Source: Escherichia coli
GTDB taxonomy: Bacteria > Pseudomonadota > Gammaproteobacteria > Enterobacterales > Enterobacteriaceae
Length of the DNA stretch: 64,000 nt
Assembly (NCBI RefSeq): GCF_011045215.1
Contig: NZ_CP049202.1
Direction: 5' to 3' (one strand)
Shown: piece after piece, positions 61,930 through 63,721 of the stretch
Layout of the letters: the number at the start of each line of letters is the position of its first letter
Position numbering within the stretch: the stretch's first letter is position 1
Notes under the pieces: model-generated
The model's database searches: none
Seen by the model: the letters and a program-made list of their open reading frames with translations, nothing else
What the model was told of the DNA's origin: nothing
Program-made: the position numbers and the translations under genes

Positions 61930-63050
61930 ATGGGTAACGCAATGCACTCTCTTAAGACACTTCTACAGTTACCTTGCAGATGGCAATGCAGTCGACAAAT
62001 AATTAGCTCTGACGGTATAACCCTCCATCTCCGCGGAAAACGCAAAACAGCACAATGCCCTGAATGCTTTAAGCGTAGCGATTCTGTTCATAGTTGTCGC
62101 CGGCTGGATACAGCATCTACCCTGTGCAGGCCAGACGCTATGGCTTGTATTTTCCGTCCGCCACTAGTACTGCCGTAACCCAGCTTGTTCACGTAAAATT
62201 TTTGCCGAGTCGCTTGCTCCCTTCGCCGGTTCACACCAGCAGTCTTCACTGGCATTACAAAATTTGCAACGTCAACTGGGATTAATAGCCGGAGGTGAGG
62301 CCGGAAAACGAGCAGCAACGGCAGTGGGTCTCCGTTGCAGTGCAGATACTCTTCTTCGCAGGGTTATCAATACCCCGGAGACGAGACTGTCAGGCGCGCT
62401 CCATGTCAGTATTAATGAGTGGAGGTGGCCATCGGGGCCACCGTTACGGTACGTTAATTGTCAATCTTGATACTCACCGTCCCCTCGCCCTGCTTCCCGG
62501 CCGTGAGCAGTGTACACTGGCCACCAGGTTCAGAAAATATCCGGAAATACAGGTTGTCTCGCGTGATCGTAGTGGAGTCTATGCGACAGCAGCATGTGAG
62601 GGTGCACCTCAGGCCAGGCAGGTGGCTGATCGATGGCATCTGCTAAATAATATTGACGATGCGCCTGAACGAATGATGTACAGACATATACCTCTGATAC
62701 TCTTGTTGCCCCAAAGAAATCACCTGAGCCATAACTGCCTGTGCCTGCAGCATCGCTCCGTTGTCCGGAATGCCTTAAACAGCAAACCAGCAAAAAACGG
62801 CATCAGCGTTGGACAAAGGTTATGGCCCTGCATAACAAGGGATGTAGTTTCAGGGAAATATCCCGTATTACAAGCCTGCCGCGTGTGACAGTCAGTCGCT
62901 GGGTGCGTTCAGGAACATTCCCTGAAATGTCAACCATGCCTCCAAAGCGAGGGCTTCTGGCCTCATTTAGAGAGTGGTTAAAAGAGCAACGAGAAAGTGG
63001 TAATTATAACGCCAGCCGGATATGGCGGCCCGGGGTTTACAGGCAGTGAA
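61930..63050 (+). mobile_element. Decayed ISL3-family-like transposase gene (multiple frameshifts), IS remnant
   Basis: Fragments in three frames: N-terminal zinc-finger-like CPECFKRSDSVHSCRRLD, central ...VSINEW... and DRWHLL (cf. ISL3 DRFH motif), then an HTH-like segment. Confidence 0.45.
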
Positions 63051-63157
63051 ACCATCGTCAGGGATGCTGTTGCCAAATGGCGTAAAGGTTGGATCCAACC
63101 GGTTACTACTGCCGCCAGACTTCCTTCAGTGTCCTGAGTAAGCCGCTGGTTGATGCC

Positions 63158-63721
63158 CTAGAGAAGTATGTACAACTGGACCAGAGTAAAGCACACCTTG
63201 CTGTCACGGGTGACCGGCCAGATACATGAATCTGCAGATAGATATATCATCAGAGACACCCTTTTATTTCGCGAATAAGTGTCTGTAATAACGCCGATGC
63301 CAACCAGTTCACAACTTTTCCATTGAAGCAGTCCACCACCTGTGATAACCAGACTTTGCCTGTAGTCTGTATACACAATCCCTGGCATTGAAACACGCAT
63401 ATGAGGTGTACTTCGGAATATGACCGTGCGCTCAGGAAGTACGGCAGATTCCGTCAAAAATTACCTGTAAAGACAGACTTCAGAAAAAACAGTGCTCGCC
63501 GCAGACCGGTGACCGGGCGAAGCCCGCGAACCGGCGAGGAAGCGCAATGGATCTGTAGTTACAGTGAGCAGGTACGCCCTGAAGCCTTCATAATCGGTAG
63601 TGTGTGTTGTTTTTCTGGAATGATTTATCCACATATCCGGAGGCCCGATCCAGTAAACAGATCCATGAATGATCAACAAAGGATCCATTAAAGATCCCCA
63701 TATCGCTGTCAACCTTGTCAC
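63158..63721 (-). mobile_element. Possible IS3-family transposase fragments (weak)
   Basis: Two short ORFs with faint resemblance to IS3 OrfB catalytic-core strings (YTDYRQ..., IIHGSVY...); not verifiable without a search. Confidence 0.2.

Follow-up and report, generated by a model that had tools for sequence, protein, structure and literature searches.

Decayed fragments of insertion sequences (ISs) are a routine sight where plasmid accessory regions begin or end. IS66-family elements are organised as tnpA-tnpB-tnpC, and ISCro1 is the member used for comparison here. ISEc38 of the ISL3 family routinely appears in surveys of the E. coli mobilome (e.g. PMC12137328). In Salmonella, the small RNA IsrN overlaps the 3' end of the transposase gene STM2765 (PMC2330248). 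Among plasmids, the closest described arrangement is the pif interval of plasmid F (NC_002483), which is flanked by ccdA, ccdB and resD at one end and by the RepFIB initiator at the other.

We analysed a stretch of 64,000 nucleotides of E. coli DNA (contig NZ_CP049202.1), hereafter the window, which represents most of an IncF conjugative plasmid. Four IS families are found in it within 2 kb. End to end over 61338-63297 these are IS3 (minus strand), IS21 (minus), ISL3/ISEc38-like (plus) and IS66 (minus), the IS3, IS21 and IS66 pieces being internal fragments of 120-220 bp. None of the four can transpose. Our main reading, which we hold at a probability of roughly 0.8, is that of an IS graveyard at the repFIB-proximal edge of an accessory slot of the IncF plasmid, bounded by ccdAB-resD and RepFIB, in which delivery of the neighbouring 1043-aa open reading frame (ORF) by the ISs is not demonstrable.

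The variable slot between ccdA and repFIB

In the right part of the window, resD (56230-57039), ccdB (57040-57372) and ccdA all lie on the minus strand, with ccdA placed between ccdB and the 1043-aa ORF. The latter, taken from the ORF list at 58119-61250 on the minus strand, is the cargo gene that adjoins the IS debris and belongs to an uncharacterised family. On the other side, 63298-64000 (plus strand) is conserved backbone upstream of repFIB, present at 90-97% identity in more than 3000 IncFIB plasmids, and the RepFIB initiator gene, a RepB-family CDS, begins at the base right after the window end, as seen in L001 and L002, where it directly follows the match. The nearest relatives are IncFIB plasmids from cattle, sheep and human, pVir68 among them; 80% or more of 61300-64000 is present, at 96.5-98.4% identity, in 24 PLSDB and seven RefSeq E. 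coli plasmids. Across the ISL3 remnant the relatives show 0-1 differences per 100 bp. Relatives that are otherwise near-identical to the window diverge from it by 5-6% on the repFIB side of about 63100 and nowhere else, so homologous exchange in the repFIB flank does occur.

The debris had been proposed in the initial annotation to mark a cargo boundary, and the plasmid comparison bears this out. Among plasmids that carry both ccdA and repFIB, homology on the ccdA side ends at 57984-58003, and homology on the repFIB side resumes at 63298, 63359, 63364, 63382 or 63585, depending on the plasmid. The debris marks the right, repFIB-proximal edge of this variable cargo slot. What fills the slot differs from plasmid to plasmid: pifC, the P-loop NTPase PifA and other genes in plasmid F; an S-4TM effector, IS1 and an Abi fragment in another plasmid; a DUF3800 pseudogene in yet another; a DNA-binding protein and two hypothetical proteins in pO157-like plasmids; and a different hypothetical protein in pAVS0282-A. 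Plasmid F is homologous to the window over 56245-58000 and 63364-64000, whereas its slot of about 7.7 kb holds the pif genes and the slot of the window, about 5.3 kb, holds the 1043-aa ORF and IS debris.

Searches of the 1043-aa protein against Pfam, the defence-system profiles of PADLOC and the sequences of the Protein Data Bank returned no usable match. Its homologues form about 100 clusters of about 1040 aa, all named hypothetical, and are spread over Enterobacterales (38-40% identity), extending as far as Pseudoalteromonas (24%). The protein has four hydrophobic segments within residues 44-189, and the G+C content of its ORF is 34-43%, against 50-54% in the ISL3 remnant. One homologue, in Salmonella, adjoins McrBC inside an integrative conjugative element, and another, in Kosakonia, sits among ordinary chromosomal genes. 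These features, and the presence of pif in the same slot of F, make a modest case for a putative defence or exclusion role. The stretch between ccdA and repFIB of IncF plasmids may be a hotspot where anti-phage or anti-plasmid cargo accumulates, and the 1043-aa ORF may encode an undescribed single-gene defence or exclusion protein, a proposal that we put forward tentatively and consider unlikely.

Identity and junctions of the IS fragments

The ISL3-family remnant occupies 61853-63165 on the plus strand and is the left 1357 bp of a truncated and decayed ISEc38-like element of about 1765 bp. In blastn it aligned with an intact element of an E. coli chromosome (L005:2932-4288) at 90.5% identity over 1358 columns, from the first base of the element (window 61853) to its position 1357 (window 63165). 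The intact relative carries 44-nt inverted repeats at 2933-2976 and 4653-4696 and one uninterrupted transposase ORF of 539 aa. As the alignment takes in the element from its very first base, no part of the left inverted repeat is lost; the repeat was placed at about 61854-61896 (plus strand) by alignment to the corresponding arm of the intact copy. Missing are the right 408 bp, which comprise the last 119 codons and the right inverted repeat, and with them the side on which one copy of the family's 8-bp target-site duplication would lie. The repeat core GGTTCTTCCGCAACTTGGG was found at a single site of the 64-kb window, with up to three mismatches allowed, and in one place per complete relative plasmid. 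With no right repeat and a single repeat core, this is a remnant and not a complete member of the ISL3 family.

The transposase pseudogene, at 61930-63164 (plus strand), retains codons 1-420 of 539 in three frames, and tblastn with the intact transposase followed these residues through segments in frames 1, 2, 3, 2 and 3. ISL3-like strings had been noticed in three plus-strand frames, and they are indeed present and well beyond what chance would give, with CPECFKRSDSVHSC in the ORF at 61930-62178, VSINEW in that at 62264-62470 and DRWHLL in that at 62295-62888. The Pfam profile DDE_Tnp_ISL3 (PF01610) was matched at E 9.4e-11 and 42.4 bits, exceeding its gathering cut-off of 23. The NCBIfam profile transpos_ISL3 (NF033550) was matched at E 2.7e-29, but at 102 bits against a cut-off of 180, because a single frame holds only a fragment. 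The N-terminal zinc ribbon, Zn_ribbon_ISL3 at residues 40-84 of the intact relative, is represented in the window by residues 1-75 at 73% identity with CPEC kept; the window ORF by itself reached only E 0.0058 with that profile. The interval originally assigned to the debris, 61930-63721, thus does contain ISL3 sequence, which starts 77 bp earlier, at 61853, and stops at 63165.

For comparison with ISEc38 we used copies labelled by PGAP as 'ISL3-like element ISEc38 family transposase' or 'ISL3 family transposase'. Along 1.3 kb the remnant is about 90-92% identical to them in nucleotide sequence, and it has the same left inverted repeat, zinc-ribbon region at the N-terminus and opening part of the DDE_Tnp_ISL3 domain. 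Unlike them, it is truncated at its 3' side, frameshifted, stop-ridden and devoid of the right repeat, and, outside its own plasmid lineage, every other copy in a complete E. coli genome differs from it by at least 7.7%. It is an ordinary IS scar; PGAP already annotates the pseudogene in near-identical plasmids as 'ISL3 family transposase', frameshifted, with an internal stop, incomplete and missing its C-terminus.

On the minus strand, weaker IS3-like fragments had been reported in the same interval; the homology found there is to the IS66 family, at 63149-63297, by blastn and tblastn against ISCro1. At the DNA level, 63149-63222 matches ISCro1 (L015 3482-3555) within tnpB codons ~77-100 at 79.7%, and 63213-63296 matches it (L015 3747-3833) at 83.9%, the latter stretch being the first 12 codons of tnpB and the last ~16 codons of tnpA. 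At the protein level, tblastn aligned TnpB residues 77-109 at E 2e-8 (IWPVTRDSKV... against VWPVTRDGKV...) and TnpA residues 208-223 at E 1e-4 (ALLQTLIREIKG). The 3' end of tnpA is followed by tnpB on the minus strand, as in IS66 elements, at 80-84% DNA identity. A distant DNA search with 63166-63300 found IS66-family elements at 80-83% identity in 1392 PLSDB records, each with IS66 copies that cover at least 80% of that interval. The fragment therefore resembles ISCro1-like elements in keeping both the TnpB motif WPVTRD.KV and the C-terminus of TnpA, over the tnpA/tnpB boundary and part of tnpB. It differs from them in that only about 150 bp are left; tnpC and the two terminal repeats are lost, as are the greater parts of tnpA and tnpB. 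No TnpC match was better than E 0.6, and the end sequence of ISCro1 is absent from the window. The piece carries an internal deletion of 191 bp, and both of its outer ends are internal to the IS.

Two other assignments of the minus strand were rejected. The sole signal for an IS3 label in 61930-63721 is a patch of 24 residues at about 63300-63375, which abuts the IS66 TnpA C-terminal match and scored E 0.02-0.27 with NF033516 and E 0.076 with Pfam rve in profile searches that used ORFs, entire frames with masked stops and a composite assembled by hand. Neither tblastn with OrfB proteins of the IS2 and IS629 types, which gave nothing significant, nor the profiles recovered an OrfA/OrfB transposase with an rve core within that interval. 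An extension of IS66 into 63304-63700 would depend on one weak TnpA match (residues 71-91, E 0.003-0.017), judged spurious because the backbone there is common to plasmids with different left flanks and no ISCro1 end is present. No IS homology is demonstrable in 63304-63721, which is the backbone upstream of repFIB common to the more than 3000 IncFIB plasmids.

The joins between these pieces were resolved at the base level. At 63149-63165, aligning the window in register with both the intact ISL3 and IS66 places the ISL3/IS66 junction in a microhomology of 13 of 17 positions (GTTGAT.CC.T..AGAA). The 191-bp deletion inside IS66 is flanked by 6-bp direct repeats, GCCAGA, and the join of IS66 to the backbone reads GG.GTCA. 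None of the resolved junctions is an IS terminus. Their position in short microhomologies, and not at IS ends, points to microhomology-mediated deletion rather than transposase action as what probably shaped them, an argument that uses one reference copy per IS family. Other lineages extend the repFIB backbone leftwards with different sequence, so the right end of IS66 is a lineage-specific junction. Position 63298 was considered as a common recombination hotspot, and this was rejected because L012 and L016 have the same left flank and L009 shares a further 62 bp.

To the left of the ISL3 remnant, an IS21-family istA remnant lies at 61482-61697 on the minus strand, matching the istA of ISEc62 at 78% in two blastn pieces; in tblastn, IstA residues 124-155 (E 3e-8) and 237-254 (E 3e-4) aligned at 61678-61524 (minus). 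No origin was identified for 61698-61852, between the IS21 remnant and the left repeat of ISL3. A genuine IS3-family piece does exist, at 61338-61457 on the minus strand, outside the interval where IS3 had been reported. It derives from the OrfA/OrfB junction region and is 73% identical over 122 bp to a chromosomal pseudogene (L014:1991-2741) that itself scores E 2.9e-24 with NF033516 transpos_IS3. An isrN-like match overlaps this fragment in antisense at 61294-61430 (plus strand); the Rfam alignment is full length, with a weak 5' third, at E 4.8e-6. The match is thus antisense to a transposase remnant, as with STM2765/IsrN of Salmonella. Unlike IsrN, it is a putative, sub-threshold match, at 39.6 bits against a gathering score of 44; it would fit an IS-derived origin of this stretch.

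How the 1043-aa ORF arrived

The position of the fragments beside the 1043-aa ORF had been taken as support for its acquisition through transposition, and the comparative evidence does not support this. No terminal inverted repeats or target duplications were found flanking 58.1-63.8 kb, and the search of 57.4-64.0 kb returned only short, chance-level pairs. The ORF behaves as a module bounded at about 57879/58060 and 61321/61334. Nineteen RefSeq E. coli plasmids match 57900-61950 over 80% or more of its length, and only six of them have the ISL3 remnant; the module occurs without it, at 90-97% identity, in at least 13, in three other contexts. Such ISL3-free contexts include one beside strAB and a RelE/ParE pair and one between DUF2913 and DUF2767 genes. 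In pZ1322HEC0003-2 (L009), the ORF is present as a degraded copy beside repE and dynamin-family genes. An IncFII copy (L007) carries 106 bp of ccdA-proximal backbone and therefore probably left a ccdA context by recombination.

Among the alternatives, the one that survives best is that the ORF moved together with the IS3- and IS21-family debris, by one-ended transposition or IS-mediated recombination, and that ISL3 and IS66 came later as passengers. The IS3-family fragment starts at 61338, only 4 bp past the module boundary at 61334, and the degraded copy in pZ1322HEC0003-2 keeps it out to 61472 in a different context. Since the fragment both abuts the module and travels with that copy, some IS-associated step may lie in the past of the 1043-aa ORF. 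The alternative as a whole we judge unlikely: in two other contexts (L007 and L008) the module stops at 61321-61334 and no IS fragment is present, the IS3-family fragment comes from inside its IS and is no terminus, and the ccdA-proximal backbone in L007 suggests recombination out of a ccdA context.

Less well placed, and very unlikely in our estimate, is that the ISL3 remnant was once an arm of a composite transposon, which delivered the ORF and whose partner copy has since been lost. Such a history would agree with a remnant lying within 600 bp of the ORF start and with an ORF whose G+C content is below that of its surroundings. Against it, the ISL3 repeat core is single in the window and in each complete relative, neither two copies of the same IS nor an outer target duplication frames the ORF, and the module is found without ISL3 in the other plasmids. 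The geometry is also unfavourable: the left repeat of ISL3 faces IS21 and IS3 debris and not the ORF, and the right side ends in a microhomology deletion junction, not in an IS terminus. Under the preferred reading, that of an IS graveyard at the edge of an accessory slot, exchange of slot contents among IncF plasmids more likely proceeds through recombination within the conserved flanks or close to them.

Decay, order of events and meaning

Lesions of the ISL3 transposase were called base by base against the intact copy. Four indels shift the frame (-2 nt at 62102, +1 at 62429, -1 at 62700 and -11 at 63028), a deletion of 12 nt at 62710 is in frame, and a 19-nt deletion at 61902 lies upstream of the ATG. 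In-frame stops occur at codons 80, 273, 411 and 419, and the single uninterrupted ORF of the ISL3 family is absent. The 79 substitutions are distributed 20/23/36 over the three codon positions, nearly as even as would be expected in the absence of selection, and this indicates relaxed constraint. The conserved motif IDEW reads INEW in the window copy. In the intact 539-aa protein, DDE_Tnp_ISL3 is matched in two stretches with a helix-turn-helix insert between them, the best of which covers profile positions 1-134 of 240 at residues 160-294; with its last residue at 420, the window copy has lost the final part of the catalytic domain. The ISL3 copy cannot transpose. That it is nevertheless a live IS, with its left repeat and start codon intact and its frames joined by the programmed frameshifting that several IS families use, is next to impossible, because the right end, last codons and repeat alike, is gone, and four independent frameshifts, four stops and the change in IDEW interrupt what in the intact relative is a single ORF. 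Scanning 61200-64000 for sigma-70 promoters gave 0 sites where 3.3 would be expected, which leaves an outward promoter from the remnant unsupported.

The frameshifts, stops and missing end confirm the suggestion that old insertion events are recorded here, as dead IS fragments. The order of these events can be proposed from what remains. The ISs probably inserted one after another into a region that would tolerate insertions because it sits between two maintenance and replication modules. Microhomology-mediated deletions would then have trimmed them, and one such deletion would have taken the right end of ISL3 together with the tnpC of IS66. The mosaic left by these steps would since have been passed on, as a fixed scar, within a single plasmid lineage. 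No plasmid that would represent an intermediate, with a complete ISEc38-like or IS66 element in this position, was found.

The debris itself is of little importance, and its value lies in marking a lineage and in delimiting the slot. The ISL3/IS66 microhomology junction is a precise, lineage-specific structural marker, which identifies the IncFIB plasmid family of cattle, sheep and human to which pVir68 belongs. What deserves study is the contents of the slot, the uncharacterised 1043-aa gene included.

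The 1043-aa ORF, its family and its flank

The 1043-aa ORF (window 58119-61250, minus strand) belongs to an uncharacterised family, which is conserved in length, spread across the Enterobacterales at 38-40% identity and devoid of any Pfam match. The N-terminal part of the protein contains four hydrophobic segments, and a Salmonella homologue (L018), located within an integrative conjugative element, is adjoined by McrBC. Upstream of the ORF by 44 bp, and divergent from it, sits a full-length, sub-threshold match to isrN, an Hfq-binding sRNA (61294-61430, plus strand), which scored 39.6 bits with the Rfam model, below the gathering score of 44 (E 4.8e-6). 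The match is closed by a U-run and lies antisense to the IS3-family fragment (61338-61457, minus strand).

The intact ISEc38-like transposase

The intact ISEc38-like transposase, found on an E. coli chromosome stretch (L005:3028-4647), is 539 aa long. A helix-turn-helix insert at residues ~293-338 divides its DDE_Tnp_ISL3 domain into two matched stretches, giving an architecture of greater length than would be expected from Pfam's DDE model by itself.

The repFIB-upstream region

The region upstream of repFIB (63100-64000) diverges by 5-6% from its counterpart in plasmids whose identity to the window is otherwise 99-100% over 61300-63000. This suggests that alleles were exchanged at the RepFIB replicon, the breakpoint lying near the ISL3/IS66 junction (63149-63165). 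Also upstream of repFIB is a GC-rich stretch of 61 bp (63491-63551), having 78.7% identity to the sequence between resD and repE of plasmid F (L020 14029-14089). The stretch occurs again in a comparison plasmid (L009 3422-3492), other plasmids presenting short 95% matches, and it may represent a shared replication or recombination site.

Cargo between ccdA and repFIB

Comparison with plasmid F (L020) and four further plasmids (L012, L016, L011 and L010) revealed that, in IncF plasmids, the ccdA-repFIB interval (window 58001-63297) forms a cargo slot of variable content. In plasmid F the slot is occupied by pifC/pifA; in AR_0119 it contains an S-4TM effector together with IS1 and an Abi fragment, and in pCUVET18-789.2 a DUF3800 pseudogene. 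The window plasmid has the 1043-aa ORF at this place, and further plasmids have still other genes. The ORF module of an IncFII plasmid carries 106 bp of ccdA-proximal backbone adjoining strB (L007 4980-5085, matching window 57879-57985), so this copy was captured from a setting next to ccdA. The ccdA-repFIB slot of IncF plasmids looks like a hotspot of defence-type cargo.
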